This document shows, piece after piece, positions 9,917 to 42,420 of a stretch of DNA of 44,432 nucleotides (its first letter is position 1; the number at the start of each line of letters is the position of its first letter). Location: assembly GCA_032718475.1 (NCBI GenBank), contig JAUCBJ010005079.1:1-44432 (forward strand), in the 5' to 3' direction. The notes below the pieces were generated by a model. The model saw nothing but the letters and a program-made list of their open reading frames with translations. It did no database searches and was not told where the DNA came from. Origin of the DNA: Nemertoderma westbladi (Eukaryota; Animalia; Xenacoelomorpha). Both the position numbers and the translations under genes were made by a program.

Positions 9917-10381
9917 AAATCAGATCTCTCCAGGCACCTGAAGACTAAGTTCTTTCGAGTCACAGTGGAAAGTGTATTTTTATCCGGGGGTGAGACCTGG
10001 ACACTGACTAAATCACTTGAACAACGAATTGATGGTTGCTACACAAGACTACTAAGGGCAGCCCTAAACATCAGCTGGAGACAACACATGACAAACGCCG
10101 AGCTTTATGGTACAATACCACCTGTATCAACCACCCTCCGTGAACGCAGATTAAGATTCAGTGGGCACTGCTGGCGAAGTAAAGACGAGGTCATACCAGA
10201 TCTACTTCTCTGGCAACCAACTCATGGAAAGCGTAGTCGTGGACGACCGGCCATAACATATATAGATCAACTTGAAAGGGATACTGAACTTGGGAGAAAC
10301 GAAATTACGACAACTATGGAGAATCGGGAAGCCTGGGAGGATCTCATTTCCACTGTCCGAGTTCGCTCGACTTAGTAGTAG
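9917..10381 (+). mobile_element. 5'-truncated copy of RTE family B (same family as 33333-36847)
   Basis: Near-identical to ~36377-36841 (ORF 9965-10375 matches the end of the 1025-aa ORF) and has a (TAG)n tail. TATTCCTAGC at 9893-9902 and 10382-10391 is a probable TSD. Confidence 0.9.
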
Positions 10382-10680
10382 TATTCCTAGCTAGCCAGTG
10401 GCATCGCTCTTTGCCTGCCTGCCTGACTACGCCTATGACTACCTACCGAGCTATTCATTTATTCTCAACCTGTTTAGCTGATATTCCTACAGAGTCTGTT
10501 AATATATTTATATTTAAATTTATAGCTAAACGACAGATTTAATAATGATTGTCAATAATAAGGCTTATATCCAAAAGTGTTTATTTCTCAAAATATTAGG
10601 CTTATTATTTTTTGATAGGATTTCTGTGTATGCCTATTTGAATTATCTAAGTTTTTACACTGGGGCATTAACAAAGGGTA

Positions 10681-16122: not shown

Positions 16123-16549
16123 CTGGGAAATAAATGGAGGGGAATTAATAACGAATAGGAAACACAGAGAACACAAATTATTTCATTTATAGAACTCAAA
16201 ATAGCAACGACTGCTGCTAGTGAAGTAATCAGTGTGTAAATTAATTAGCGAAGTGGAGATCTTGGGTTGAAATTGGGTAGCTGTGGTGTTACATAACGAA
16301 CAGTAGTGGGCTAAATAAACATGATCGACCACCGCACTATGAGGCAATGCGGGGTTATATTGGTTGTTCGTCAGGGGTACACCATAGCCCCATTTCTGTT
16401 CATTGTCATGGTGACAACGAGATATCCGTGTGGAGCCTTGGTGTGGAGCCACACAGATGGAGCCTGTGCCTTTGCTGAACTGTAACTGTTGAAATGGACT
16501 GGACACCTGTATTAGCAAGTTACAGAGGGTACACACACAATGTCACTCC

Positions 16550-16793
16550 GTGAGAGGTAACGCGAGAGGGCGCGAGAGGTAACACGAGAGGGCGCGAGAT
16601 GTAACGCAAGAGGGTGCAAGAGGTAATGCGGGAGGGCGCGAGAGGTAACGCGAGAGGGTACGAAAGGGCGCGATAGGTAATGCGAGAGGGCACGACAGGT
16701 AACGCGAGAGGGCGCGAGAGGTAACATGAGAGGGCGCGAGAGGTAACGTGAGAGGGCGCTAGAGGTTACGCGAGAGGTAACGCGAGAGGGCGC
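16550..16793. repeat. 22-bp minisatellite (GCGAGAGGTAAC + GCGAGAGGGC), left part
   Basis: Direct inspection. The array continues at 40032 on the other side of the Gypsy element. Confidence 0.95.
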
Positions 16794-17004
16794 TGATATA
16801 CTCTTGGACCCTGGATCTGAGACCTGGGATGTACCGGTAGGTAGGAGATATATTGCTTACTGTGTTGTTCTATTCATGGCCTGCCTGCGTATTACTGTTC
16901 TATGGACTGACACTTATATACTTACCTGAAATGTACTGAATATTAATATTACACTGCTTATTGCATATTATCAGTATTATTTTATATGTTCCGGGGTTAT
17001 TACA
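16794..17004 (+). repeat. Gypsy 5' LTR
   Basis: TGATATACTC...TTATTACA. About 9 mismatches (counted by eye) versus 39821-40031. Confidence 0.95.
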
Positions 17005-19017: not shown

Positions 19018-19535
19018 ATGAAATCTGAAACTTCAGCCCACATTGATGATACGGAATATCAGATAATCGATATGGAAACTCCTAAAGTCGCTCGAGTTAC
19101 AGAGAATTCCCCTGACAAACCCATTATAACAGTCGACTTCCTTACAACTGCAGGTAATCTAATGGGGAAACTTGACGTTATCGCAGACACGGGTGCGCAG
19201 GTATCAGTTGCCAGAATAAAAATCCTAAAGAAACTCCGTATTCAGAGGAGAAACCTTAAACCCGTAAATGAAACTTTCGAAAGTGTTAACGGACTCAAAC
19301 TCTCCTGCATTGGATCGTATTCAATGAATATGAAACTCAGTAATACAATGCATACTGAACGAATCGTTATCTGCAGGGATATCGAGGACATTTATATTCT
19401 CTTGGGCGCATGTAAAGGACTGAATATAGTCTACGCTGATTTTCCCTAACAACTTCCAAATTCGGTAGTTTCAGCCACCACCAAAATTTCAAACCCGGCA
19501 GATAAATCAATTGCTCAGAACCTATTGACAGATGT
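19018..19535 (+). pseudogene. Gypsy aspartic protease; the frame continues to the BEL insertion point
   Basis: VIADTGAQVS motif. After one stop the frame reads ...NLLTDV and resumes as NNPFISDIKEQ beyond the BEL element. Confidence 0.85.
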
Positions 19536-21224
19536 TGTTCGCGGTATTTCAACTTTTCTTAACGCGAGTTGAATATTTTTCGGATTTATTTGAAATGAAT
19601 ATTCCAATATCACTACTGGGCGCGGGAACATGGGATTTGGGCATATTCAATGGACTGGGGGCGATTTATGGGCGAATATTGGGGCGACTTACGGGGTACG
19701 GGACTCATGTCAGATATTTAAGGGCCAGGGGTAGGAGGCAAAGTTAAGCAGTATTCAGGTTTGCCTGATTACTATTAGGCCTAGCCAACTTCCTGCTGCC
19801 TGTAGAGGTGGATTTGGTAACTCGCTAGGCCTAAGGGACAAGGAGTGCCCTTAGCGGTCCCTGGCCAACAGTAGTTATTACGAGCCTGAATAAGGACTCG
19901 GAAAGTCTGCTGCTTGTGTCAGGGATTTGCGACGGGAACCGACAGACAGATCTTTAGCGGTCCCTGGTCACCGGCAGTTATTACAAGCCTGAATAAGGAC
20001 TCGGAAAGCTTGCCGACATACACCAGGGACTTGCGACGGGTCAACCGACTAACGGAGGATGGGTTCGACGAGGACTGCCTTCCTGGAGTGGGTTCCACGA
20101 CCGGCGTTAGTACGAGCCTGAATAAGGACTCGGAAAACTACCAACCGTTGGGGCTCACGACGGGCTGACAGACCCCTTGCCAAGCCGTACCGCTTTCCTG
20201 ATGACCAATCCCCTCGGGGTTCGGGAAGGGTGGGACGGAGACGCAATGGGGTCGAAAGACAAAGGACCAGGCTCCACTGGCCTACCGACTGTTCGGAGCA
20301 GCTTCTCGGCTACCAAAGCGACTACGAGCCTGAATAAGGACTCGGAAAGCTTAGGTGGTTGGGTCCCCGTGATGAACCGACGGACCCCTAGCCAAGCTGT
20401 ACCGCTTTCCTGATGACCGATCCCTTCGGGGTTTGTGAAGGGTGGGACGGACACACAAACGGGTCCACCGACTTGACAGACCTAGCCAAGCCGTACCGCT
20501 TTCCTGATGACCAATCCCTTCGGGGTTCGGGAAGGGTGGGACAGACACGCAACCGTGTCTACCGACTTGACCGACCATTAGCCAAGCCGTACCGCTTTCC
20601 TGATGACCAATCCCTTCGGGGTTCGGGAAGGGTGGGACGGACACGCAACCGGGTCTACCGACTTGACCGACCCTTAGCCAAGCCGTACCGCCTTCCTGAT
20701 GACCGATCCCTTCGGGGTTCAGGTAGGGTGGGACGGACACGCAACCGGGTCTACCGACTTGACCGACCCTTAGCCAAGCCGTACCGCTTTCCTGATGACC
20801 GATCCCTTCGGGGTTCGGGAAGGGTGGGACAGACACGCAACAGGGTCGACCGACACCGACACTACGGTACCAAAACTAGGACCGAGGGAAAATTGGGGAA
20901 CATTAGTTAGGTTAAAATCTATAACAAACAGTGGGTAATTAAATAATGTACTGAAGGGATTTATATTGTTGTGTTATATTATTGAATATTTGGTGTATAT
21001 TGGTTTGGGGAAGCCCAACTTATTCTCAATCAAGATTCAACCGTAAGGAAGTTATATTAAAGATTATATCCAACCAATGAAACTTTTCTCAACCGCAATC
21101 TTACATTTAAGAAAGTGATCCTTCTTCACTTTCAATATCTGGTGACTGGCCGGAATTCCGTGGTCTAAAAGTTCCACCTCCAGCATCGGCGTTTTCCCCC
21201 ATGGTATCGGGAATAACGGCAACA
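19536..21224 (+). repeat. BEL 5' LTR (1689 bp)
   Basis: Direct repeat of 31623-33118. TATTTAA at 19715-19721. Holds four A modules and six B modules. Confidence 0.92.
19846..20855 (+). ncRNA. Putative array of structured RNA hairpin modules in the LTR
   Basis: Manual folding gives k-turn-consensus C(UUCG)G hairpins (96-bp period) and ANUA/GAA plus GAAUA-loop hairpins with compensating outer stems. Confidence 0.6.
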
Positions 21225-21431
21225 AAATTGAGAATAAGACGCGGCCAACTTCAACTGGTGGAAGTTGGGAATCCTACAGTACTCTTCAAACTCTCTCCGT
21301 GCTTACCCAGCACCCACTACGAGGAAACTCTGGTATTTGATTTAAGACAAAGCCGTGGTTCAATCAAATTACAAACTCGAACTAAAAAACTCGTAGTCGG
21401 CAGATCACATATAGAGAGTTGTTAACAGGGA

Positions 21432-21623
21432 ATGCAAGTATCGATCACACCAATTGATATAATCCAAGTTGAGCCAGGAATCTGGCACGTCGAAGTCGAA
21501 GTACAAGGAATGAATGTTGGACGATTCAGGATTACCATTCGGGTAGTCCAGGCTGAATACGAGACCTACGAAGAACTATTTTACGATATCGCATATCTAG
21601 CGATCAATGAGGCGCTAGAATGA
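21432..21623 (+). CDS. 63-aa upstream ORF whose stop overlaps the gag start (ATGA)
   Basis: ATG start, protein-like composition. The TGA at 21621-23 overlaps the gag ATG at 21620-22. Confidence 0.5.
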   Translation: MQVSITPIDIIQVEPGIWHVEVEVQGMNVGRFRITIRVVQAEYETYEELFYDIAYLAINEALE

Positions 21624-24600
21624 CGAGGAATAACGTCTCCGATACTGATGAAATGGACCCCCACACAGACTCGGAAACCGACGAGGCACCGAATGTGAAG
21701 AACATGGCTCGTCGACTGGGAGCTCTCAAAGGTGGAGTGACTCGAGCATACCACTGCATCGAGAAACAGCTAAAGGGCGCCGAGACTCCCCTCAGCGATA
21801 TACAGACTCAATTACAGAATATCCTAAGTATCTTACAACGATACGAAAGCATGATACAGCATATCAGGAACTCATTCCCGCAACCGATCTGGGAAACTAC
21901 CCCAGACTCGAAGAACACGTACCACATTTGGACGAGTTCCGCAAGCAACATCGGAGGACCCTCAGCCTCATAAGAGGCTACGAGGAACAGTATTATAAAC
22001 AAACTGAAAGGGCGGACGCAGAATCAGTACAGACCTCCGGTACCAGAACCGTGGTTCAGGGAAAAAGAACTGGGTCCTCGAGGCACCAGCACTCCAGCGC
22101 TAGGAGCGAGATATCTGGTTCAGCGCGCAGTTCCCAAGGGGGTCAACCACTCTGAGATCAGCTGCGAGAACAGAGGGCATTGGCTCTTAAAGCTCGAATG
22201 GAAGATGAGTATGTCCAACTGGAAATTGAACAGGATGCACTGGCGGAGGAAAGACATAAACAGGAGGCCGAAATATATGCCAAACAACAAACGCAAGAGG
22301 CCGAAATACGGTCCGAAAAATGTAAACAAGAGGCCAAACTATGTAAACGAGAGGCCGAACAACAGGCCGAAATACGTAAACAAGAGGCCGAAATGTGTAA
22401 ACGGAACACCAAGGCCCAAGCGATTCTTGTTCATAAAAAGAATGCGGACATTGCTAAACTCACAGACTACGAAGCTGCACTCATAGAATGGGACCTTCAA
22501 CTATACGAGGACTGGGAAAGGGGTATAGAACAGGATTATGTAACAATTCCAGTCCCGGAGTTAGAAAAGTCATTTACACCACCGGCTGCGGAACCCCCAA
22601 AACCTGAGTTCCCGCCTACTATACAGTCTACGTTATCGGCACAAGCACCGGTATTCCACCCCTCACCGGTTATGCTTAAGAATGAGGAACCTTATTTCCC
22701 ATCTAATCCCACGGCACCGAGCGTTCCCCAGTACGAGTCTGAAAAGGACTCGGAACGGGACGCCACCCCTCAATCCAACAATCCGTTCACATCCATACCG
22801 AAAATCCGTAACCGCGTCATCATTAAAACTCCACCTCTCGTCGATCCATCGTGCATGGGAGAAAATGTGAATAACTATAATCCTCCTAGTCATTCCAGTT
22901 CGGATGACGTTGGCATCATCCGAGCCTTGGAAAACCGCCTGGCTATGCCCAATATGGAGATCCGCACCTTTGAGGGAGACCCCGTCGATTACCTCAGATT
23001 CAAGAAACGGTTCTTCGCTCAGATCGGGTCAACGGATATAACCGACGCACAAAAACTGGTATATTTATCCCAATACCTGGGTGACAAACCACGTCGAATC
23101 ATTAAATGTTTCGAGGGAGGATCTCACGAAGCGTACTACGACGCATGGAAAACTCTAGACAAAAGATACGGAAACATCGGAACTATAATTAATAAGACGC
23201 TCAAGAAACTGATACAGGACGCTGGGTCCCTAGGGGACCCACAGAATATCCAAGAGTTCTCGGACTCTATGAAAGATGCCTACTACACTTTAAACCATTA
23301 AACAAGGAGGAACAAGTAAACAACATTTTAAACCTCCGACAGATTGCCCGAAAGTTCCCCGGATGGCTGCAAAGCAAATGGGCGTATAAATGCGTAGATC
23401 TCCGACGCAGACACCCAGATCGGGATCCCAGTTTCCTCGAAATGTCGGCATTCCTAGATGATATCTCCGAAGCCATGAATGACTCGATGTTCTCCAAACA
23501 AAGTCTCTCCAAGTTAGACAGAATAGAGAACAACTCTAGGAGCAGGACACCCACTCCGAAACCGAGATTCCGTCCCCCTCCGGTGAGTACGATGGCCATC
23601 AATCACCATGGCCGAGGATTCTGACGACGAGAACTACGAGGAACTGACATCAGGCGAGGAATGGGCGTGTTATCTAGTGAATTGGGCACCCGAAAGGGAA
23701 GGCACCACAACCTCCCTTCTATATTGCTTCTGCGGAGAGAAACACAAGGTGGAATTCTGCAGAAAGTTCCAGTTTGCTGAACTCGTCCCACGCTTCGAGG
23801 CGATAATGAAACACCGAGGATGCTTCCGGTGTTTCGGAACAGGTCACTATGTTCGGGATTGCGACCAAAGATCGTGCTGCGCGGTCTGTAATGACCTACG
23901 TCATCACACACTCCTCCACATCCCTGCGAACTTCGATTTTACCACCCTCCCGTTCCGGATCGAATCCAAACGGAGAGGAGAAACGAATCACGTCTCTAAG
24001 GGTACCCGGACGATTCAATGGAAGGAAACCAATCCATTTAAAACCGCCACCGATGTATCACATGTGACAAATATTTCGGCTACGATCAATCTTATAAACC
24101 GCCAATACATGGTTTTCGCCAAAGTGATCCCAGTAAGAATTCAAGGGGTTGGGAAATCCTTAACAACGCTCGTGTTCCTTGACAATGGGTCGGACGGAAC
24201 CATCATCGACTGGGATTTCCTCGAACAACTAGGCCTAGACTACGAACCTTGCAAACGGCCCATACAAACTATTACCGACCATAGAGAAGTGGAGTCCGGG
24301 GAGGTATAACTCAAGATGGAAGGGGTTATGAAGGGTTACGAGACGGTCAAACTGATGATCAAGAACGCTCTGGTACACAACGATCTCCGAGTGCGGTTCC
24401 GACAATCATCTGAATATGCACCCCTCATACAACTAGACTGGGAAGATGTAGATCTACGATGCCCGCCGTTGGACGTGAACCAAATTACCCTATTAATCGG
24501 ACTCGACACACCGGAATTACACATACCAACCGGAGACATCGCCCGATCCATAAAGCCGGATGACAGTTTTTATGCAGAACGCACCATCATGGGATGGACA

Positions 24601-27600
24601 TTATGCGGCATCAAAGAGCAGACTACTGACACCTATACATATCTCCCTAAATGCCAGATTAAAGAGAATTCAACATCTGTGGATTACTGTTCAGCCACTG
24701 ACCCGGACGAGGATTTATTCCTAGAAACTGAAAAAACCCAGCAGGAAATGACCAAGTACTTTAACTCAGAGACCCAAGAGTTTGCTGAAAAGGACGAAAA
24801 CCCGTCCGAGGAAGATCAATATTGTATCGACATCCTTGATCAGGCCACGTTCAAAGACGGACATTGGTGTTCGCCCATGCTGTGGAAAGACCCAGATAGA
24901 CCGATGGCGAATAATGCCAGCATGGCCCTTAGGAGGCTTAAGGGGATCCGGTTAAACGACCTACCCGAGATAAAGGAGAAATACAATAATGTAATTAGAG
25001 GATATCTAGAAGATGGATTGGCGGAAATGGTACCCCGGAATGAACTGCAAGGGGGTAGACGGACGTATTATCTCCCAACCCACTATATGATAGAAGCCCG
25101 GAAGGGTTGTAAAATCCGGGTAATGAATGATGCTGCGGCTATGTATCAGGGCGAATCCCTGAACAGCCAACTTTATACAGGGCCCAACATCTACAGTACA
25201 CTCATCAGCGTGTTGATCAGGTTCTGGGAAAACCGAATAGCCTTCACCTGCGACATCAAAGCAATGTTCCACCAGGTCCGAACGCTACCAAGAGACTCAG
25301 ACTGTCTACGTATATTATGGACAGATAAAACATTAACTCGAGAGGAGATAAGTCAACTCACCTTGAAGGATGTGGACATAATGCGCATGATTGTCAGGAT
25401 CTTCGGCGCTAAGGACTCGCCGGTGGCATGTAGTGACATGCTGAAGAAAACAGCGGCTATGTGCAAAAACGAGTTTCCTCCGACAGTCATAGAGACCATC
25501 CAACGATGCTTCTACGTAGACGACGGATGCGCCGGTGCCGATAATGTCAACGAGGCATATCAGCTGGCGATGGGAATGGTGGAATGTTTAAAGAGAGAAG
25601 GCTTCCCTCTCGTAAAGTTTAGATCCCACGATAAGGAACTTATGGAAAAGTTCCCGGAAGAAATCAGACTAGACGACAATAAAATGTATTCCGAGGGTGT
25701 GGATCACCATGTACTCGGTATCGAATGGGACATAGAATTGGATGAGTTCATCTTCAAATATAACCCCCTACCCAAGCCCATGACAAAAAGGGGATGTCTG
25801 TCTATAAAAAGTGCTATATTTGATCCACTAAACTTCATATCTCCAGTAACATTGGCCGGAATGAATTTGATCAAAGAATTGTGGATAGAAGGACTGGGTT
25901 GGGACGAAGAACTCCCCCTACACCTCAGTGCTAAATGGAGAAAGTGGATGGAACAACTCGAACATCTACATCTTATGCGGATCCCTCAACCGTTCTTCCT
26001 CGATAAACTACCCACCGATATATTCCAGCTCCATACCTTCTCGGACGCATCGAATACCGGAATCAGCGTAGTTACCTTCCTAAGAAGATTAAGTCAGGAT
26101 GGAAACAGCGATACGAGCTTCTTATTCTCTAAGGCTAAGACAGTATCCAGGGAATTCGTAGCAACGATACCGAGACTCGAGCTACAGGCTGCAGTTTGGG
26201 CAGTGAGGCAGAACCGCATGATCATGCGGAACTTACGAATCCCCATCGAATCGCAGCATTTCTGGGTCGATTCGGGTATCGTACTCTACTACCTCCACTC
26301 ACCATCACGGCAACACACCACGTTTGTAGCGAACCGAGCCACTGAGATAAAACAGTGCACCGGCCGAGAACAGTGGCACCATGTAAACGGGAAAGAAAAC
26401 CCAGTGGATTTATCGAGCAGAGGCGCCACCCCACAACAACTCGGTAAAAGTAAACTCTGGCTTACAGGCCCGGAATTCCTACAGCAGCCACAATTAACCT
26501 GGAGCACCCGATTCGATCACAAACTAGATAGTGAAAAATACTCCGAAGACGACAAGGAGATCCGTAAAGTCCATAGAAGCGCCACAGTGGAGATCTATAG
26601 TTGTCTGAACGAGCCTGCAAAGGACTCGGGCAAGCACTATAATATCGCGACTACCACGCAACCAGCGGCGTCTTTACAACTATTGATAGAGCGAACCTCC
26701 TCAATGAGACGTCTCATCCACCACATCTTAACCCTTCGCAACTTCCTGCGGTGGAAGGACAACAAACCGATAGTTTGACGAAGTATACAAGAACTCATTA
26801 TTGCGGAGAAGTGTACCGGTATTGTTAGATATGTCCAGAAAGAAAGTTTCCCCGATGAGTGGGAACAACTCAGTGCGGGCAAAACCTTGAAACCGGACAG
26901 TCCAGTCTACCAATTGAGACCCATGATGGGAGAAGACGGACTGATTCGACTGAATACCCAGATGGCAAATGCCCCGGTTGAATACGAAGTCAAATACCCA
27001 GCGCTTCTACCCGGAATGTCAACATTAGCCAAGCTATTAATCCAACAGTGTCACGAAGAAAACCATCACGCGGGACAGAACTGGATTATGGCTAATATAC
27101 GGCAAAGATATTGGATCACCCACATCCAGCCACTGATCCGGAAAGTGTTAAAGCGTTGTTTTCCCTGCAGAAGATATCTAGCGCCAACGCTCACACAAAG
27201 AATGGCCAACTTACCAGCCACACGACTGCAGTCCGATTCCCCGCCGTTCTACGTAACCGGAGTAGACTGTTTCGGACCATTTACAGTCATCGAGCGACGA
27301 TCCAACATCAAATGCTGGGGGGCTATCTTTACATGCCTTAGGTCTAGGGCAATCTACCTAGACCTCGTAGTGAACCTTACGCAACACGCATTTCTCAACG
27401 CCCTGCGTCAGTTCGTGGCAAACAATGGAACATGTCGTCGTATGTACTCCGATAATGGAACAAACTTCGTGGGAGGAGAAAGAGAACTTAGAGAGGCGAT
27501 CGAGGGATGGTTCACCGAAGAGACCGCATCCCAAGTCTGGAGGGAACACCATATACAATGGCACTTCCAAACACCCTTGGCAACCCATACGAGCGGGGTA

Positions 27601-28224
27601 TGGGAGAAGCTCATCGACTTGGTAAAACGATCCATGCGCGTCGCATTAGGGGACATCCGGGTAACCCACGACACCCTTCGCACAACATTCTGCGAGATCA
27701 CGGCTACCCTAAACAACTGGCCCATCATACCTATTCACGACAACCCCACAGATCTGGAGCCTCTTACACCTAACCATCTACTCGGAAGACCTAAAACCAA
27801 CATTCTTCCAGAGGCGATGTTCCCAGATCCCAACAATATTGCTAGACACACCAATTGGAAAAAGGCCCAAGCACTGGCAGCGCATTGGTGGAGAATTTGG
27901 GCCCAAGAGTACCTCATAACCCTCCGGACCAGGAGGAAGTGGAATAACACCTACAAGAATGTCGCAGTTGGCGACATGGTGCTAGTTAAGGAAGACCTTA
28001 AAGACCGCGTCCACTGGCCTGTGGCGCGAGTCGTGGAAATAGCCCCAAGTAAAGACGGACTTGCGAGGACTGTGATGATACGAACGGCAAAGGGCCACTA
28101 CCAACGCCCTATCCAGAGGCTCTGCCTTCTTGAAGGCAATGACAGCGGTGATTCTACGAGAGGTGATAAGATCCCTACTCAGGATCCTGCTGCAGACATT
28201 GGTGACAATGCTAAACCCGTTTAA
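21620..28224 (+). pseudogene. BEL/Pao gag-pol polyprotein (DUF1759-like gag, Cys/His knuckles, protease, RT, RNase H, integrase) with a few stops and frameshifts
   Basis: Motifs FEGDPVDYLRF, CFRCFGTGHYVRDC..CAVCNDLRHHTLLH, FLDNGSDGT, DIKAMFHQV, FYVDD, FSDAS, TIPRLEL, GVDCFGP, SDNGTNF and GVWEKL. In-frame stops at 22153, 24307 and 26776; frameshifts near 21900, 23298 and 23606. Confidence 0.95.
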
Positions 28225-28879
28225 ACCCTTCTCATCCTGTTGACAAACTCTTTTAAATGTGATTTACTGACAATGAATAATGGATCCCCCTTAAACCAAC
28301 TGTATCCACGCAATGGTATTTGTGTTTCCTCGTGTGTTATGTGGAATCCAGAGTCACCCTGCAGATGTTTCGACTGACGCAGGGTAGTTTATGTATTGTT
28401 CACCCTGATTTTGGTCATCAGGACCAACTATATTGGATTATTGGAAATGGTAAAGATTTGAAGTGGAATTCATTGTATCCATTGTGTTGTATTGTGTTGT
28501 CCGTTGCATGCGCAGTTCGGGGCGTAGGCAGTTTAACTAGTCCAGCTGTAGATCCCGGATTGCCGCGCAACACCCCCTCTATCACGTTATTCTGGCAGGT
28601 CCATGATGCATCCACATGACTTCGTCGATAGAGGTTTCATGTTTCTCAGTCGCGTTATTCTGGTGGGACCGTTGCATGGATTTTGGGGCGTAGGTGGTGT
28701 AACGAGTCCGGCTGTAGATCCCAGAATGTTGCGTAACCCCATCCCACAATGAAAATTTCCCAAAGAAGATGGTTGAATGTAGTTGGAAATGATGAAAAGA
28801 AACAGACGACCCTACTATAAACTGAATGATGACGCGTATGATGATGAAAATGTAATGATGCACACCCTGGTGCTGCGCT

Positions 28880-29130
28880 TATAACAAATGATGATAGCCG
28901 GGGGCTATAACCCCAATGATGAAATGGAAATGATGAAATGAAAATGATAAAATGTGGAAATAAATGAAATGTGTAATAAATGTGAAATAAATGTGGAAAT
29001 AAATGATGAAATGTGGAAAGAAATAATGAAATGTGAAATGAGTAATAAATGAGAAATGAAAAAAGACAAAAAAAATGTATAAAATGTAGAAAGTAAAAGA
29101 ATTGGAAAAAGAAGAGGACATAAAAAGTCA
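28880..29130 (+). repeat. C-poor low-complexity (AAATGA/AAATGTG) tract between pol and ORF3
   Basis: Direct inspection. Confidence 0.8.
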
Positions 29131-29331
29131 AAACTGGTTGGATATTAATGTATAGCTATAGTAACTGTAAATACTGAATGTAGTAGCAATAAGATGGTAG
29201 ATGCCTATATAGCAATAATAATTAATAAACTGAATTACAAATAAACTGAATTATTCTGCAGTCACTATAGAATCAGACTTTCTGGATTTATAATTAACTG
29301 ATGTAAATTTGCAACGGACATAATTGAAAAT

Positions 29332-31458
29332 ATGGACCCAAATCGCCAAATTATCGGCAAACTACGTAATACAATAGATTTACTGGAATATCCACAGCCT
29401 GGATCTCCCAACTTTGATACAGCATGGAATGCCCTGATAGTTGAGAATGTGCGAATCATTAAATTCTCCGGGCGAGAGGGACCGGATTCCCGTAATCTAC
29501 GAGAGCTCCAGTTGACCGATGTTAGTACGAGACTGAAAAGAACTCGGAACACAAAGGAAACCGGAGGAGAGGAGTTGTCATTCTGGGAAACGTTCCGGCA
29601 AAGCGTCTACAAATCTCGATGTTTGATATACAACAACGAGGGAAACGCGACGCCCACCTCGAAAGCGATTACGTTGGCGTGATGCCAAAGTTTTGTCGAC
29701 GACAAGAGTACGTACCTCACCCACTGGGGAAACCTAGCGGAGTGTACGGCGACGCTGCGAGAGGAACGTATATCAGTTATCCAGAATCGCGACGACTACC
29801 AGGAGAAGTATGGGACAAAGGAATACGGTCGATCATTAGTCGTCATCCTCGGAACCCTAGATGGTCTGGTGTTGATATGTCGAATATTTCCGACACCCAA
29901 ACAGGAGATGCGGACAGCCAGAGCGATCTGGCTATTACCACCGGAGATCCAACAGATCCTATTTGATTTCGACATCACTAAAATCGGGTCGGATATAAAG
30001 GCGGACGTCCGAAATGACTACGCTAACGCTCCTTTCGGAAGAAACCGTCGAGAAGATCTCAACGCCATTAGTCATTGCATTGACACCCAAATACTGCTAG
30101 CCTGGTTGCGATCCGCAGAATTCATGCGAGGATTCCGAGAGATGAGACGGACGAAATCCGGTATCGGCTACCTCGCAGTGCTAAACGGCGGTATAAACTT
30201 TAAACCCCAGAAATTCCAGGATTATAATAAGATATATGGTGGGCACCCGGAATTAGAAATAAAGAGTGAGCGAGAGAGTCGCTGGAAGGATGTAGAAAGA
30301 AAGTGGATGATCCACCACAAGTGGGAGAATCCAGATCGACGGAACTTTATCTACATCGTAATGGAATCATACACAGTTGCCAAGTTCATCTGTAAGACTC
30401 TTGATAGTCTCATTAAGGCAGTTCCTAGATCCTTTATCGACTATGAGTGGAACGAAGTTATCGACCACGCATTCAAAGCGGTAGAGAATATTCCACCAGG
30501 AGAAACGAAAAGGCTCACCGTCATCACATCCTGGGACGAGAATGGACCATTCGACATCCCTACGGTTGCTGATCTCCTCGGTGCGGAGGAACCACTGCTA
30601 TCTTCGGATGGGGAGGAATTATGGCTACAGGAAGGTGTTCTGCTGTCCACCCCAAAGCGACAACTCGATCCAGAAGTCGCTTACAAACCGGCCGCCAAAC
30701 GGGTCGCCTCGGCCAAACCTGCGACGGAAGCAGGTGTATCTACCCCACTTGGCTCCGCCAGTCCCGCTAGGGAGCTAGTAACTACCTTTGCGTTGAATGA
30801 CTTCGGCGTCATATGTCAGAGGTTGTCTCCATATCCGTTCCCGGGGGGAGAAGACTGGTCTTCGGAGATCCCGAGTACCAGCACCCAACAGACCCACTCA
30901 GCGATACAGGTTGCAAAGGGTCCCAGCGTTGCTCCGACTCCCGTAGATCTCCTCAGAATTCCTCCGTCGAATGCCCCGGCACCTCTTTGTCGACCAGCTG
31001 TGGCAACGACCCCTTCCGTTCCACAAGACCCTATGCGACTTACCCAATGGTACGCCGAACAGACTGAATGGATCCACCACCAGAAACGGGCGCCCGGGAT
31101 GTGACTGGCAGGATATAAAGAAAGTTATCGAAATGAGAACATCCTACGCCAAAAGAACATCCTACTACCATTCAATTACGTGGATCTATTATTAAGCGCC
31201 GGATTATTCGGTCCCTTCGAGATCCTTAGGCGTCACTCCTATAAGGAAGAATTCGGTGACGGAAAGTGGTTCCTAGAGGCACGCACTACCGAGTTGGAGA
31301 GACGGACGGATATGATCCCGCTACCATCTAAAGGAAGAGCCGCCAGGAGACAAGCTGAAGCGATGCTCACGATGGATGTTGATGCTCCCCTACCAACACT
31401 GGCGATCGACGAGAGTAGACGGGCGAAGAGGAGAAAGGCGTATCAGAGTAAGAAATAG
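29332..31458 (+). pseudogene. Extra ORF3 (~708 codons, two internal TGA) with a DEDDy/WRN-like 3'-5' exonuclease domain, Pro-rich linker and Arg-rich C-terminus
   Basis: ORFs 29332-29682, 29869-31104 and 31180-31458 share one frame, separated only by TGA at 29680 and 31102. Motifs LIYNNEG, VILGTLDGLVLICRI, LPPEIQQILFDFDITKIGSDIKADV, CIDTQIL and KWENP..IYIVMESY. Confidence 0.7.
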
Positions 31459-31622
31459 AGGACCAGAATATTCCAGGGACATTTATATCGAACATTTATT
31501 TTTATATATTTACATAAACTGACTCTAGGAAAAAGTAATCAAGACTATGCAAAATTAAAATTTGGGTTTTTTATATGGGAAATGACCTAAGCAAACTCGA
31601 TCTACCGATAGACCTCACGACC

Positions 31623-33118
31623 TCGCGGTATTTCAACTTTTCTTAATGCGAGTTGAATATTTTTCGGATTTATTTGAAATGAATATTCCAATATCACTAC
31701 TAGACGCGGGAACATGGGATTTGGGCATATTCAATGGACTGGGGTGATTTATGGGCGAATATTGGGGCGACTTACGGGGTACGGGACTCATGTCAGATAT
31801 TTAAGGGCCAGGGGTAGGAGGCAAAGTTAAGCAGTATTCAGGTTTGCCTGATTACTATTAGGCCTAGCCAACTTCCTGCTGCCTGTAGAGGTGGATTTGG
31901 TAACTCGCTAGGCCTAAGGGACAAGGACTGCCCTTAGCAGTCCCTGGCCAACAGTAGTTATTACGAGCCTGAATAAGGACTCGGAAAGTCTGCTGCTTGT
32001 GTCAGGGATTTGCGACGGGAACCGACAGACAGATCCATAGCGGTCCCTGGTCGCCGGCAGTTATTACGAGCCTGAATAAGGACTCGGAAAGCTTGCCGAC
32101 ATATGCCAGGAACTTCCGACAGGTCAACCGACTAACGGAGGAAGGGTTTGACAAAGACTGCCTTCCTGGAGTGGGTTCCACAACCGGCGTTAGTACGAGC
32201 CTGAATAAGGACTCGGAAAACTACCAACCGTTGGGGCTCACGACGGGCTGACAGACCCCTTGCCAAGCCGTACCGCTTTCCTGATGACCGATCCCCTCGG
32301 GGTTCGGGAAGGGTGGGACGGACACGCAACGGGGTCAAAAGACAAAGGACCGGACACCACTGGCCTACCGACTGTTCGGAGCAGCTTCTCGGCTACTGAA
32401 GTGACTACGAGCCTGAATAAGGACTCGGAAAGCTTAGGTGGTTGGGTCCCTGTGATGAACCGACAGACCCCTAGCCAAGCCGTACCGCTTTCCTGATGAC
32501 CGATCCCTTCGGGGTTCGGTAAGGGTGGGACGGACACGCAAACGGGTCCACCAACTTGACAGACCCCTAGCCAAGCCGTACCGCTTTCCTGATGACCGAT
32601 CCCTTCGAGGTTCGGGAAGGGTGGATGGACACGCAACCGGGTCTACTGACTTGACCGACCCTTAGCCAAGCCGTACCGCTTTCCTGATGACCGATCCCTT
32701 CGGGGTTCGGGAAGGGTGGGACAGACACGCAACAGGGTCGACCAACACCGACACTACGGTACCGAGACTAGGACCGAGGGAAAATTGGGGAACATTAGTT
32801 AGGTTAAAATCTATAACGAACAGTGGGTAGTTAAATAATGTACTATAGGGATTTATATTGTCGTATTATATTATTGCAAATATTTGGTGTATATTGGTTT
32901 GGGGAAGCCCAACTTATTCTCAATCAAGATTCAACCGTATGGAAGTTACATTAAAGATTATATCCAACCAATAAAACTTTTCTCAACCGCAATCTTGCAT
33001 TTAAGAAAGTATTCATTCTCCACTTCCAATATCCGGTGACTGGCCGGAATTCCGTGGTCTAAAAGTTCCGCCTCCAGCATCGGCGTTTTCCCCCATGGTG
33101 TCGGGAATAACGGCAACA
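31623..33118 (+). repeat. BEL 3' LTR (~1496 bp; four A and four B modules; lacks the initial TGT)
   Basis: Aligns to 19539-21224 and is about two 96-bp units shorter. Confidence 0.92.
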
Positions 33119-33332
33119 TATGTTAACAATCCATTTATTTCGGATATAAAAGAGCAATTACTCAAACAATACGCAGATGTATTCAGATCACAGGGTAAAC
33201 TGTCGACAAGGGTTAGTGACCCGATGCGTATAGAACTAAAAGACCACGTGCAACCATTCACTATCCATACAGCCTGCCCAATTCCATTCGCACGCTGTGA
33301 GAATGTTAAACAAGAAATTGACAATATTTTAA
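32972..33332 (+). repeat. Left copy of the ~361-bp target-site duplication of the RTE
   Basis: Repeated at 36848-37208 with about 3 mismatches. Confidence 0.95.
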
Positions 33333-36300
33333 GTAGTCAGGTCAGGTCCCCAGATCCTGCTACCACTATGGCAGTAATGTGGTACTACCTGTAGCTGTCA
33401 GCCCAGTAGGGCAGGCCCGATAAGCATAGCCTATTCATTATTTAGTTGATCAAGAGTGGGTTGGTTCAGCCCCGTCAACTAAATAAGTCATTGAAGGCAA
33501 AGGCTCGATACGCATCTGCATTAGAGATGATACAAGCCCCGCCCTGTCTATACTGGATGCTCCTCTACCAGTGTTAGGTAACCTAACCCAGGAGGCACAC
33601 TTGGTTCAGGGTGTAACAAATGGACCCCTACAGTCGGCAGCAGGGCTGTAGGCCATGGGTAGGCGGAAGGTAATCAACCAACGGCTAGACATGCTGACAA
33701 GGTCGGCGGAAGGTAATCAACCAACGGCGACCTACTGCGAAGACGCTTGTAGGAGTTGTGACCACAAGCAGTTTACTCCCGCAACTGAAAGATATGAGTA
33801 TGAGAACCCTCCAGGAGAAATACCGGCTCGGTCGTCGCCCGGGTCAACAAGGACCGCGTCCCTCAGTGGTACACCAGGCTGGGGTCGATAACTACGCTAC
33901 TGGAACAGAAGACAGAGAAGAAAGAAGAACCAACCTGTTGAAATGTAAAAAGACACTAAAGATTGCTACAATGAACGCACGCACGCTGAAAGCACAGAGC
34001 AAACAGGGTGACATAGTCGCTCTGGCAATGGAATATAACATCGACACCATCTGCATCCAAGAACATCGGATTTGTCATGAAGACACTGCCATGAAGTTCA
34101 ATGACATTGGAAATGGATGGACGTTAGTAACAAGCTCAGCAGTAAGAAACTCGGCCAATGCATTAATTGGTGGAGTAGGAATTCTGCTAAGCCCATTTGC
34201 ACTTAAGACCCTAAATAACATCGAATCTATAAATTCCAGGGTTATGATCGCAACATTTGATAGGAATCCCAAGACAACAGTTATATGTTGCTACAGTCCA
34301 ACCAATGCATCAGAGCCAGAACAAGCAGTCAAGTTTTATGAAGAACTGACTGGACTTATTAAGGACATCCCGAAACACAATGTCAAAGTCATTGCTGGTG
34401 ACCTGAATGCGCAAATTGGCCCAGAAGACATCAAGGGTTACACCTATAACACCAGTTCTAACAGAAATGGGTACTTACTTTTAGACCTAATGGAAGAATG
34501 TGAATTGATACCAACAAACAACACATTCGAAAAGAGTAAGGGGAAGCTATGGACCTTTCAATACCCTAATGGAACCAAAGCACAACTGGATTACATCCTT
34601 ATAAACAAAAAGTGGAGAAATAGCATGATCAACTGCGAGGCATACAGCTCATTCAACCTAATTGGTTCGGACCACAGAATTGTGACTGCAGAGATCAGAC
34701 TCAGTTTGAGAGCCAGCAAACCCAGGACAAGCAAGCAAATCAACTATGACTGGGAGAAACTCAGAACTGACAATGCTGTAAAGGATGCTTATACAGTAGA
34801 AGTTCAAAACCGCTTTGAAGCACTTCAGTCAATGGATGAAGACCAATCCACCGATTCAATATACCAGAATATAATAACAGCCCACAAGGAATCAGCTAAG
34901 AGGCATATCCCCCTGAAACCTAAACGAAAACAGTATGTGCCATGGCAAAACTGTGAGGTTACTTGTAAGAGAGAAGATCTTAAGATAGCCTACAAAGTTA
35001 AAACCGAACAACCAACAACCGAAAACATTAACAAGGTTGAGAAAGCTAAGGACGATCTTAAATTGGCCTACAACATCAGCCAGGAAAAGTACATACAGGA
35101 TAAAACTGAAGCAATTACAACTGCTCACATACAGCAACAATCAAGACTTACCTGGCAAACTGTAAATGAGGTATCTGGTCGGAAAAGTTGTGCAAAGGGG
35201 TGCCTCAAAGCTGATAGTCCTGAAGAACGTGTTGGAAAGTGGAAAAATCACTTCAGCAACTTGCTTGGGCAGCCACCAAACATCGAGGTCAGCCCTACAA
35301 GGAAAATATATGACAAGACACTACCTATAGAAACAGGGGACTTCACACCTGCCGAACTCCAAAGAAGCATTAAAAGCATGTCCAATAATAAAGCGAGTGA
35401 ATTAGATGAAATCCCAGCGGAGGTATGGAAAACCGGAGTGCTAAATAGACCATTATTGAATGTTTGCAACCGGATGTTAAAAGGGGAAAAGCCACCACCA
35501 ATTTGGACTAAAGGTCAACTAAAGCCTCTCCCCAAGAAAGGAGACCTCGGCATACCAACAAACTATCGTGGGATCTGTCTGCTTGTGGTAGCTGCCAAAA
35601 TATACAATAAAATGATTCTATATAGGATTAGGCCTCACATAGAGAAACTACTGCGTAAGAGCCAAAACGGATTTCGACCAAGTAGATCAACAATAGCTCA
35701 GATACTTGCACTACGGAGACTGATTGAAGGAATTAAGTCAAAGAATCTCCCCGCAGTCATGACTTTTGTGGACTTCAAGAAGGCATTCGACTCCATCCAT
35801 AGAGGTAAAATGCTTGAAATCCTAAGAGCTTATGGAATACCAGAAGTAATTGTTGCTGGCATTGGATTGTTATATTGTGACACAGAAGCGCAGGTACTCT
35901 CACCAGATGGTGAAACTGAGTTTTTCTCAATTCTGGCTGGCGTACTGCAAGGTGACACCTTAGCACCATTACTATTTGTAATTGTGCTGGATTACGCAAT
36001 GAGGATGGCCACAAAGGGTGAAGATCTGGGATTCACACTTCAAGAACGCAGAAGTAGTAGATATCCGGCAACTACAGTCACAGACACCGACTTTGCGGAT
36101 GACATTGCCCTGCTCTCTAATACGCTAGCAGATGCACAGCTTCTACTAAATAAAGTGGAGAGGGCTGCTAAGAAGGTTGGATTGCATATAAATGCTACCA
36201 AGACCGAATTCATGACCTTTAATGTTGATGGAAACTTGACAACCATTGATAATAATCAACTAAGGAAGGTCGATGACTTCCAGTACCTTGGATCATGGAT

Positions 36301-36847
36301 AGAGAGTAGCAAAAAGGACATAGAAGTTAGGAAAGCAAAGGCTTGGGTAGCTCTATCAAAAATGGATACCATCTGGAAATCAGATCTCTCCAGGCACCTG
36401 AAGACTAAGTTCTTTCGAGCCACAGTGGAAAGTGTATTTTTATACGGGGGTGAGACCTGGACACTGACTAAATCACTTGAACAACGAATTGATGGTTGCT
36501 ACACAAGACTACTAAGGGCAGCCCTAAACATCAGCTGGAGACAACACATGACAAACGCCGAGCTTTATGGTACAATACCACCTGTATCAACCACCCTCCG
36601 TGAACGCAGATTAAGATTCAGTGGGCACTGCTGGCGAAGTAAAGACGAGGTCATACCAGATCTACTTCTCTGGCAACCAACTCATGGAAAGCGTAGTCGT
36701 GGACGACCGGCCATAACATATATAGATCAACTTGAAAGGGATACTGAACTTGGGAGAAACGAAATTGCGACAACTATGGAGAATCGGGAAGCCTGGAAGG
36801 ATCTCATTTACACTGTCCGAGTTCGCTCGACCTAGTAGTAGTAGTAG
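33333..36847 (+). mobile_element. Full-length RTE-clade LINE (family B)
   Basis: ~430-bp 5' UTR, a single APE+RT ORF, a (TAG)n tail starting at the stop codon, and a long TSD. Confidence 0.95.
33758..36835 (+). CDS. RTE ORF: AP-like endonuclease plus reverse transcriptase, uninterrupted (first ATG at 33794)
   Basis: Motifs ATMNARTL, ICIQEHR, YSPT, GDLNA, LDYIL, GSDHR, FVDFKKAFDS, GVLQGDTLAP and DFADDI. Confidence 0.97.
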   Translation: MTTSSLLPQLKDMSMRTLQEKYRLGRRPGQQGPRPSVVHQAGVDNYATGTEDREERRTNLLKCKKTLKIATMNARTLKAQSKQGDIVALAMEYNIDTICIQEHRICHEDTAMKFNDIGNGWTLVTSSAVRNSANALIGGVGILLSPFALKTLNNIESINSRVMIATFDRNPKTTVICCYSPTNASEPEQAVKFYEELTGLIKDIPKHNVKVIAGDLNAQIGPEDIKGYTYNTSSNRNGYLLLDLMEECELIPTNNTFEKSKGKLWTFQYPNGTKAQLDYILINKKWRNSMINCEAYSSFNLIGSDHRIVTAEIRLSLRASKPRTSKQINYDWEKLRTDNAVKDAYTVEVQNRFEALQSMDEDQSTDSIYQNIITAHKESAKRHIPLKPKRKQYVPWQNCEVTCKREDLKIAYKVKTEQPTTENINKVEKAKDDLKLAYNISQEKYIQDKTEAITTAHIQQQSRLTWQTVNEVSGRKSCAKGCLKADSPEERVGKWKNHFSNLLGQPPNIEVSPTRKIYDKTLPIETGDFTPAELQRSIKSMSNNKASELDEIPAEVWKTGVLNRPLLNVCNRMLKGEKPPPIWTKGQLKPLPKKGDLGIPTNYRGICLLVVAAKIYNKMILYRIRPHIEKLLRKSQNGFRPSRSTIAQILALRRLIEGIKSKNLPAVMTFVDFKKAFDSIHRGKMLEILRAYGIPEVIVAGIGLLYCDTEAQVLSPDGETEFFSILAGVLQGDTLAPLLFVIVLDYAMRMATKGEDLGFTLQERRSSRYPATTVTDTDFADDIALLSNTLADAQLLLNKVERAAKKVGLHINATKTEFMTFNVDGNLTTIDNNQLRKVDDFQYLGSWIESSKKDIEVRKAKAWVALSKMDTIWKSDLSRHLKTKFFRATVESVFLYGGETWTLTKSLEQRIDGCYTRLLRAALNISWRQHMTNAELYGTIPPVSTTLRERRLRFSGHCWRSKDEVIPDLLLWQPTHGKRSRGRPAITYIDQLERDTELGRNEIATTMENREAWKDLIYTVRVRST

Positions 36848-37208
36848 TAAAACTTTTCTCAACCGCAATCTTGCATTTAAGAAAGTATTCCTTCTCCACT
36901 TCCAATATCCGGTGACTGGCCGGAATTCCGTGGTCTAAAAGTTCCACCTCCAGCATCGGCGTTTTCCCCCATGGTGTCGGGAATAACGGCAACATATGTT
37001 AACAATCCATTTATTTCAGATATAAAAGAGCAATTACTCAAACAATACGCAGATGTATTCAGATCACAGGGTAAACTGTCGACAAGGGTTAGTGACCCGA
37101 TGCGTATAGAACTAAAAGACCACGTGCAACCATTCACTATCCATACAGCCTGCCCAATTCCATTCGCACGCTGTGAGAATGTTAAACAAGAAATTGACAA
37201 TATTTTAA
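36848..37208 (+). repeat. Right copy of the ~361-bp TSD, including a second copy of the BEL 3' terminus (ending 36994)
   Basis: Matches 32972-33332. Confidence 0.95.
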
Positions 37209-39820: not shown

Positions 39821-40031
39821 TGATATACTCTTGGACCCTGGATCTGAGACCTGGGATGTACCGGTAGGTAGGAGATATACTGCTTACTGTGTTGTTCTAT
39901 TCATGGCCTGCCTGTGTATTACTGTTCTATGGACTGACACTTATATACATACCTGAAACGCACTGATTATTAATATTACACTGCTTAATGCATATTATCA
40001 GTATTATTTTATACGTTCCGGGGTTAGTACA
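39821..40031 (+). repeat. Gypsy 3' LTR
   Basis: TGATATACTC...TTAGTACA followed by the GGCGC TSD. Confidence 0.95.
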
Positions 40032-41052
40032 GGCGCGAGAGGTAACGCGAGAGGTAACGCAAGAGGGCGCGAGAGGTAACGCGAGAAGGCACGAGAGGCA
40101 ACGCGAGAGGGTGCAAGAGGGCGCGAGAGGTAACGGGAGAGGGTGTGTGAGGGCACGAGAGGTAACGTGAGAGGGGGCGAGAGGGCGCGAGAGGTAACGC
40201 GAGAGGGCGCGAGAGGTAACGCGAGAGGGCGCGAGAGATAACATGAGAGGGTGCAAGAGGTACCACAAGAGGGTGCGAGAGGTAACGCGAGAGGGCGCGA
40301 GAGGTAACACGAGAGGGCGCGAGAGGTAACGCGAGAGGGCACGAGAGGTAACATGAGAGGGCATGAGAGGTAACGCGAGAGGGTGCGAGAGGTAACACGA
40401 GAGGGCGCGAGAGGTGATGCGAGAGGGCGCGAGAGGTAATGCGAGAGGGCGCGAGAGGTAACGGGAAGGGTGCGAGAGGTAACACGAGCGAGAGGTAACA
40501 CGAGAGGGCGCGAGAGGTAACGCGAGAGGACGCGAGAGGGCGTGAGAGGTAACGCGAGAGGGCGCGACAGGGCGCGAGAGGTACGTGAGAGGGCACGAGA
40601 GGTAATGCGAGAGGGCGCAAGAGGTAACATGAGAGGGCACGAGAGGTAACGCGAGAGGGTGCGAGAGGGCATGAGAGATAACGCGAGAGGTAATGCGAGA
40701 GGGCGCAAGAGGTAGCGAGAAGTAACGCAAGAGGACGCGAGAGGTAACGCTAGAGGGTGCGAGAGGTAACGCGAGAGGGCGCAAGAGGTAACACGAGAGG
40801 GCGCAACAGGTAATGCAAGAGGTAACGCGAGAGGGCACGAGAGGTAATGCAAGAGGGCGCGAGAGGTAACGCGAGAGGGCGCGAGAGGTAACGCGAGAGG
40901 GCACAAGAGGTAATGCGATAGGGCACGAGAGGTAATGCGAGAGGGCGCAAGAGGTAACGCGAGAGGGCGCAAGAGGTAATGCGAGCGGGCGCGAGAGGTA
41001 ATGCGAGAGGGCGCGAGAGGGCGCACAAATGACAGGTAACGCGAGAGGGCAC
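40032..41052. repeat. 22-bp minisatellite array, right part
   Basis: GCGAGAGGTAACGCGAGAGGGC units with many CpG-decay variants. Confidence 0.95.
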
Positions 41053-41143
41053 ACAAGTGAATGAAAATGAAACGCTAATTGTCATTGTTGTCACACATGT
41101 CAGCATGTCATATATTAATTTTGTATAAGTTTAGGTAGGAGTA

Positions 41144-42420
41144 GTACCGGTAGGTAGGAGATATACTGCTTAGTGTTGTTCTATTCATGGCCTGCCTGTG
41201 TATTACTGTTCTATGGACTGACACTTATATACATACCTGAAACGCACTGATTATTAATATTACACTGCTTAATGCATATTATCAGTATTATTTTATACGT
41301 TCCGGGGTTAGTACAGGCGTGAGAGGTAACGCGAGAGGGCGTGAGAGGTAACGCAAGAGGGCGCGAGAGGTAACGCGAGAAGGCACGAGAGGCAATGCGA
41401 GAGGGTGCAAGAGGGCGCGAGAGGTAACGGGAGAGGGTGTGTGAGGGCACGAGAGGTAACGTGAGAGGGGGCGAGAGGGTGCGAGAGGTAACGCGAGAGG
41501 GCGCGAGAGGTAACGCGAGAGGGCGCGAGAGATAACACGAGAGGGTGCAAGAGGTACCACAAGAGGGTGCGAGAGGTAACGCGAGAGGGCGCGAGAGGTA
41601 ACATGAGAGGGCGCGAGAGGTAACGCGAGAGGGCACGAGAGGTAACACGAGAGGGCATGAGAGGTAACGCGAGAGGGTGCGAGAGGTAACACGAGAGGGC
41701 GCAAGAGGTGATGCGAGAGGGCGCGAGAGGTAATGCGAGAGGGCGCGAGAGGTAACGGGAGAGGGTGCGAGAGGTAACACGAGCGAGAGGTAACACGAGA
41801 GGGCGCGAGAGGTAACGCGAGAGGGCGTGAGAGGTAACGCGAGAGGGCGCGACAGGGCGCGAGAGGTACGTGAGAGGGCACGAGAGGTAATGCGAGAGGG
41901 CGCAAGAGGTAACATGAGAGGGCACGAGAGGTAACGCGAGATGGTGCGAGAGGGCATGAGAGATAACGCGAGAGGTAATGCGAGAGGGCGCAAGAGGTAG
42001 CGAGAGGTAACGCAAGAGGACGCGAGAGGTAACTCTAGAGGGTGCGAGAGGTAACGCGAGAGGGCGCAAGAGGGCGCAACAGGTAATGCAAGAGGTAACG
42101 CGAGAGGGCGCGAGAGGTAACGCAAGAGGGCGCGAGAGGTAACGCAAGAGGGCGCGAGAGGTAACGCGAGAGGGCACAAGAGGTAATGCGATAGGGCACG
42201 AGAGGTAATGCGAGAGGGCGCAAGAGGTAACGCGAGAGGGCGCAAGAGGTAACGCGAGAGGGCGCGAGAGGTAACGCGAGAGGGCGCGAGAGGTAACGTG
42301 AGAGAGCGCACAAATGACAGGTAACGCGAGAGGGCACACAAGTGAATGAAAATGAAACGCTAATTGTCATTGTTGTCACACATGTCAGCATGTCATATAT
42401 TAATTTTGTATAAGTTTAGG
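41144..42420 (+). repeat. Tandem duplicate of 39858-41135 (partial Gypsy LTR 41144-41315, minisatellite 41316-42337 and unique flank)
   Basis: Same order of variant satellite units and the same flanking sequence ending TAAGTTTAGG. Confidence 0.92.

Follow-up and report, generated by a model that had tools for sequence, protein, structure and literature searches.

The window, a stretch of 44,432 nucleotides from Nemertoderma westbladi, raises the question of what a BEL/Pao-type retroelement encodes between its pol gene and its 3′ LTR. A third gene in an LTR element is often annotated as env from its position. The first-pass annotation instead took three listed open reading frames to be one frame broken by two TGA codons, and proposed that this frame (ORF3) encodes a DEDDy (WRN/EXD/RNase D-like) 3′–5′ exonuclease domain. 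The analysis described here suggests that the product of ORF3 is indeed likely to be an enzyme.

The element spans 13.6 kb (19536–33118), with ORF3 after pol and before the 3′ LTR, and consists of the following parts.

19531–19535: left target-site duplication, 5 bp, matching 33119–33123 at four of the five bases
19536–21224, + strand: 5′ LTR, 1689 bp, with TGTT...AACA ends and repeats inside
21227–21238, + strand: candidate self-priming 12-mer, two bases past the 5′ LTR and the exact complement of LTR positions 21019–21030
21620–23624, + strand: gag, with a DUF1759 match (PF03564, E 3.8e-11) and with stops and frameshifts
23587–28224, + strand: pol, with a zinc knuckle, protease, RT (YVDD), Pao RNase H region (Peptidase_A17), integrase and DUF5641
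28225–29331, + strand: pol–ORF3 spacer, 1.1 kb, which also occurs in family contigs
29332–31458, + strand: ORF3, 708 codons, with its ATG at 29332 and a TAG at 31456–31458
31623–33118, + strand: 3′ LTR
19879, 19982, 20111, 20323, 22732, 29526, 31962, 32065, 32194 and 32406: copies of a 24–25-nt motif

The features of the BEL/Pao class are present: LTRs surround gag and pol, the domains of pol follow the PR-RT-RH-IN order, and Pao-specific Pfam domains are found (pol matches PF05380 at 4.4e-37, PF18701 at 9.3e-29 and PF17921 at 1.9e-9). The BEL/Pao setting assumed in the first-pass annotation is therefore borne out. PF05380 is also found in nearly all of the 120 pol relatives listed, of 158. 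The ICTV classes BEL/Pao elements as the virus family Belpaoviridae, which is described as having a genome of 4.2–10 kb, LTRs of 0.2–1.2 kb and an 18-nt tRNA primer-binding site (PMC8742986). With LTRs of 1.5–1.7 kb and its total of 13.6 kb, the present element lies above both size ranges; since these ranges are descriptive, it is named BEL/Pao-type here. No tRNA-type primer site was seen adjoining the 5′ LTR, the first TGG being 31 bases beyond the LTR end. The 12-mer at 21227–21238 is a candidate for a self-priming site that would replace the tRNA primer site, and its complementarity to the LTR has a geometry that we take to be like that of Tf1 self-priming.

Over 1492 aligned bases the 5′ and 3′ LTRs share 95.8% identity, and in the window copy the first three bases of the 3′ LTR and the polypurine tract are unrecognisable. 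The pol frame contains stops at 24307 and 26776; as gag and pol are also broken, the whole window copy is dead. Reading of the minus strand of the pol–ORF3 spacer gave no convincing gene. The 24–25-nt motif occurs four times in each LTR and also has single copies in gag and ORF3; it is possibly a protein-binding or packaging signal, and the presence of this LTR-type motif inside ORF3 ties ORF3 to the element.

The element is inserted in the pol gene of a Gypsy element, with the Gypsy protease upstream and the RT, RNase H and integrase downstream. This host element is flanked by GA-rich arrays with 10–12/22-bp units (16485–17004 and 39821–42420), and positions 39858–41135 and 41144–42420 form a tandem duplication (95%). 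A 361-bp duplication (99%; 32972–33332 and 36848–37208), made up of the LTR tail and Gypsy flank, surrounds an intact-looking LINE ORF of 1045 codons (33698–36835). The duplication is too long to be an ordinary target-site duplication and thus points to a rearrangement or an assembly artefact. A 467-bp copy of the 3′ end of the LINE (9917–10383 versus 36377–36843; 98.7%) lies 26 kb upstream.

The 708-codon frame of ORF3 contains exactly two internal stops, TGA at 29680–29682 and TGA at 31102–31104, and the remaining five frames contain 15–39 stops each. In 2000 base shuffles of ORF3 the number of stops averaged 33.9 and was never below 18, which upholds the proposal that the three listed ORFs are a single frame with two breaks. 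All of the motifs quoted in that proposal were found, and in the order given: LIYNNEG (residues 98–104), VILGTLDG (171–178), KIGSDIKAD (217–225), IDTQIL (250–255), GIGYLA (277–282), Trp331 and IYIVMESY (340–347). The layout of the protein is summarized below.

29581–29640, + strand: helix and first strand with the ExoI position (residues 84–103)
29842–30372, + strand: core of the DEDDy-like domain, comprising a strand pair (171–183), ExoII Asp225, DTQ (251–253), GxG (277–279), GGxxFKP (286–292), Trp331 and ExoIII Tyr341-x3-Glu345
30499–31101, + strand: Pro/Ser/Thr-rich stretch (residues 390–590; 12% Pro, 17% Ser+Thr)
31105–31455, + strand: C-terminal region with a basic tail at its end, no family assigned

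The sole hydrophobic peak of ORF3 (KD19 of 2.1, residues 168–186) aligns to the strand pair of the relatives described below and so provides no evidence for a membrane helix. The membrane-anchor pattern is absent, in agreement with the earlier remark that ORF3 has no transmembrane segment and does not look like env, and the assignment of ORF3 as env is rejected. The stretch 390–590 had no family match and is likely to be a flexible linker. In the C-terminal region, 11 residues resemble the C-terminus of one relative, P0122, a likeness equalled in score by 71 of 3000 shuffles. Two helix-plus-strand segments 50 residues apart (29581–29640 and 29731–29790) are each similar to the beginning of the exonuclease fold, with the ExoI pattern present only in the first; they are possibly the product of an old internal duplication.

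Direct searches did not connect ORF3 to a known family. Neither ORF3 nor any of its parts had a relevant match in Pfam, NCBIfam or the PDB sequences, and a word-indexed protein search with ORF3 found no relative (lengths 389–1239). Scans of loci on viral and metagenome contigs yielded no relative, and tblastn against phages and plasmids gave either no matches or matches with E values of 5–7, one of which, an annotated DNA polymerase A, was left uncounted. ORF3 was undetected by a narrow enterobacterial RNase D profile, and BLAST of ORF3 against E. coli RNase D gave an E value of 0.77. AlphaFold models of ORF3 (built from one and from three sequences) had a mean pLDDT of 33–34 and were unusable for comparison with Foldseek. 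The direct profile or fold match to DNA_pol_A_exo1 or WRN_exo to which the first-pass annotation had looked was thus not obtained.

The relatives of ORF3 came from a phmmer search of 1.84 billion proteins, which returned three matches: P0122 (E 2.7e-6), P0123 (1.2e-4) and P0124. The last of these was dropped as a fibronectin-repeat false match. P0122 (648 aa) and P0123 (472 aa) are unnamed proteins, each from a single ENA record, that align to residues 155–317 of ORF3 with 24–27% identity and, like ORF3, have the ExoII, DT, GxG, GGxxFKP, W and Y motifs. Both carry a canonical ExoI (DxE) and the ExoII Asp, with ExoIII in the form Tyr-x3-Glu in P0122 and Tyr-x3-Asp in P0123. A word-indexed search with the three-sequence alignment recovered P0122 alone (lengths 153–706). 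P0122, which is encoded on a 9.4-kb ENA contig and forms a singleton cluster, consists of a DEDE-type exonuclease domain, three CCHC knuckles and a C-terminal domain.

The position of these relatives was assessed with a reference profile of 74 bacterial RNase D, NrnC-sized and PolA exonuclease domains selected by PF01612. Pfam itself gave an E value of 0.2 for P0122 and no match for P0123. In hmmsearch with the 74-domain profile P0122 scored 18.7 bits and P0123 6.8 bits, each above all of 500 shuffles, and ORF3 scored 2.9 bits, which was equalled by one of 500 shuffles. HHalign aligned ORF3 to the P0122/P0123 pair over 203 columns (98%, E 2.5e-13) and the pair to the 74-domain profile from ExoI to ExoIII (91%, E 9e-7). 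The direct comparison of ORF3 with the profile gave 6%, with a score (24.5) above those of all 60 shuffles (best 20.0). In the Atlas the P0122 domain is placed next to a PF01612 cluster (0.94, 173 of 256 features), 34% of whose members carry PF01612, and it also adjoins three unnamed clusters (0.94–0.95). When 301 bacterial genomes were searched blind with the three-sequence profile, six weak matches were obtained; two lie within PolA-type exonuclease domains and the other four are not exonucleases as far as tested. This two-step chain through P0122 and P0123 makes it highly probable, at the level of sequence, that ORF3 has the DEDDy fold. Of the original assignment, the DEDDy-like exonuclease domain is therefore supported, and the placement with WRN/EXD is not, as nothing singles out these proteins within DEDDy.

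Other copies of the element were examined in family contigs from four public DNA runs representing three samples. These contigs cover all 30 bins of 28000–31700 in three of the four runs and 27 of 30 in the fourth. One contig bridges 29157–29369 (the spacer and the start of ORF3) and one runs past the end of ORF3; no contig in the four runs spans pol to ORF3. ORF3 is a third gene common to the whole repeat family. The first half of the spacer (28250–28860) has the highest summed contig depth within 28000–31700, with several skipping joints, and may be shared with related families. At the first TGA (29680–29682), 100% of the contig depth reads otherwise in all four runs, and at codon 101, where the window copy has Asn, 99.8–100% of the depth differs from the window copy and the family reading fits the ExoI motif. 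Both the first stop and the ExoI Asn are thus private to the window copy, as had been suspected from the window alone.

The pattern of differences was examined in a stretch of 171 bases (29590–29760) in which all differences of at least 5% were listed. In these contigs, which are not independent copies, eight of the 11 non-stop rows are silent, compared with an expected share of 0.23–0.35 (P 0.0007–0.011), and six of the seven rows variable among the other copies are silent. Along ORF3, the near-fixed differences private to the window copy are silent in five of 19 cases among the rows listed (shares rounded; from 40 listed of 613 difference rows). Private A/T-for-G/C differences lie in a CpG context in 14 of 19 cases, against a background of 20–23%, in a count that scored 26 of the 40 listed rows (of 613). 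The silent bias in the family, the small number of silent private changes and the CpG-context bias together indicate that the family keeps the protein while the window copy decays. The decay of the window copy fits CpG loss. As judged from these differences, which form a small sample, the ORF3 protein is kept by selection in a high-copy family.

The conserved protein need not be a nuclease: ORF3 could have the DEDDy fold and yet be catalytically dead, serving as an RNA-binding module like EXD1 and Maelstrom, which we consider unlikely. ExoII Asp225 does not vary across the three aligned sequences and lines up with the ExoII Asp of the profile. At ExoIII the Y-x3-D pattern is absent; Tyr341 is kept and, as pointed out in the first-pass annotation, the acid is Glu (Glu345) in place of the usual Asp, so ORF3 is filed as DEDDy-like, DEDE variant. 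This Glu would suit a dead module, but P0122 combines the same Tyr-x3-Glu with a canonical ExoI (P0123 has Asp), and the rotifer ORF3s, which exchange one Asp for Glu, are still read as possibly active in the available part of PMC5408684. At ExoI the window copy reads N-x-E (101–103), and the family, which lacks this Asn and has a codon that fits the motif, argues against a lost site. Residues 84–103 are the best ORF3 match to the ExoI blocks of the relatives (a score of 13, versus 8 for the next window). This score was equalled in 72 of 2000 cases when the first 168 residues were shuffled and in 70 of 500 cases when the whole length was shuffled. The family reading at codon 101 also backs this placement of ExoI. 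In favour of a dead module, the 84–103 register leaves ~65 residues before the next strand versus 8–17 in the relatives, and MAFFT and HHalign prefer another register (134–153), without acidic ExoI residues, in which the first strand falls at 147–153. Inactive DEDD derivatives are, moreover, named in piRNA biology (PMC5408684, in the sections available). The ExoIII Glu and the extra residues after ExoI thus leave some probability to a dead RNA-binding version. From the retained acidic positions and the silent-biased variation, two-metal nuclease activity would, by a narrow balance, be expected in intact copies.

An active nuclease might instead act on DNA, polishing or proofreading cDNA ends or clearing stray cDNA for an unusually large element (13.6 kb), a reading to which we assign a low probability. 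It would be in keeping with the basic C-terminal tail of ORF3, with the PolA type of both informative matches from the blind genome search and with the membership of the DEDDy group, which takes in WRN and the PolA/B proofreading domains (PMC5408684, available text). The DEDD domains of the transposons Dada and KolobokD have also been proposed to act on DNA ends (PMC3706591 and PMC9587614, as excerpted). However, the closest relative of ORF3 has CCHC knuckles, the bacterial profile cannot separate substrates, and the location of ORF3 outside the gag–pol frame means that its packaging with RT would need a separate route, which counts against a DNA substrate. It is less probable still that the likeness of the motif series arose by chance, with ORF3 encoding some unrelated accessory or env-like protein or being a separate passenger in this copy. 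The true relatives found number two, and a direct family, structure or fold match is lacking, but across 203 columns ORF3 shows ordered agreement with two proteins whose motifs are canonical, the coverage is family-wide, ORF3 contains a motif shared with the LTRs and the pattern of a membrane anchor is missing.

The reading that we prefer, and hold to be reasonably probable, is that ORF3 is a family-wide third gene encoding a divergent DEDDy exonuclease of the RNase D/PolA type, whose predicted role is to trim the 3′ ends of RNAs to the benefit of the element. Its own ATG, 1.1 kb past the pol stop, suggests that ORF3 would be read from a separate message, either spliced or internally started. 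The fusion of the domain to three CCHC knuckles in the closest relative, P0122, suggests that the substrate would be RNA. The enzyme would then shorten the 3′ ends of host small-RNA guides, or those of the primer or transcripts of the element, and the candidate self-priming site is the place at which a primer end would need processing. A more specific version, which we offer tentatively, is that a self-primed BEL/Pao lineage captured a DEDE-type exonuclease of a previously undescribed subfamily that includes P0122, and that this enzyme is active and either trims the primer of the element or destroys host small-RNA guides. If this were true, exonuclease capture would be convergent across Gypsy, Penelope-like and BEL/Pao retroelements. 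Independent captures on several occasions would speak for a real benefit of a 3′–5′ nuclease, in RNA-end processing or in escape from small-RNA silencing; what retroelements gain from such a nuclease is left as an open question in the accessible part of PMC5408684. In a family with many copies, selection at each catalytic position is directly measurable.

Juno and Vesta are Gypsy-like elements. Together with the Athena/Terminon elements, these LTR retrotransposons of bdelloid rotifers carry a DEDDy ORF3, as is reported in the portions available of PMC5408684, PMC6431247, PMC5718144 and PMC6338049 and as the first-pass annotation had stated. From these descriptions, the rotifer ORF3 resembles that of the window in being a separate third ORF after pol, RNase D-like and of the DEDDy type, without membrane segments. 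In each, one catalytic Asp is replaced by Glu, and in both the activity is putative. The Glu occupies a different place, at ExoIII in the window ORF3 (DEDE) versus DEED in the rotifers (PMC5408684, available sections), and, by the same descriptions, the window ORF3 has a long insert past ExoI and 350 residues more. The carriers also differ, being BEL/Pao-type here and Juno/Vesta or Penelope-like in the rotifers. Among DNA transposons, Dada (DEDDy; PMC3706591) and KolobokD (DEDDh; PMC9587614) resemble the present element in having a DnaQ-like 3′–5′ exonuclease, but, in the excerpts of these papers, the Dada domain lies within the transposase and that of KolobokD is of the DEDDh type.

With the Belpaoviridae the element shares its LTRs, gag, PR-RT-RH-IN order and Pao-specific Pfam domains (PMC8742986 and, in the parts available, PMC3118150). 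In these texts, an env-like gene is the only third gene named for Belpaoviridae and metazoan BEL/Pao elements, and the word 'exonuclease' occurs 0 times in the available text of the metazoan survey (PMC3118150). No BEL/Pao element with an exonuclease was found in the literature covered, the scope of which lay outside subscription journals, Repbase reports and bioRxiv supplements. Among retroelements, descriptions of exonuclease cargo were found for the Gypsy-type and Penelope-like classes only, and the BEL/Pao-type carrier and the divergent subfamily of ORF3 are likely to extend it.
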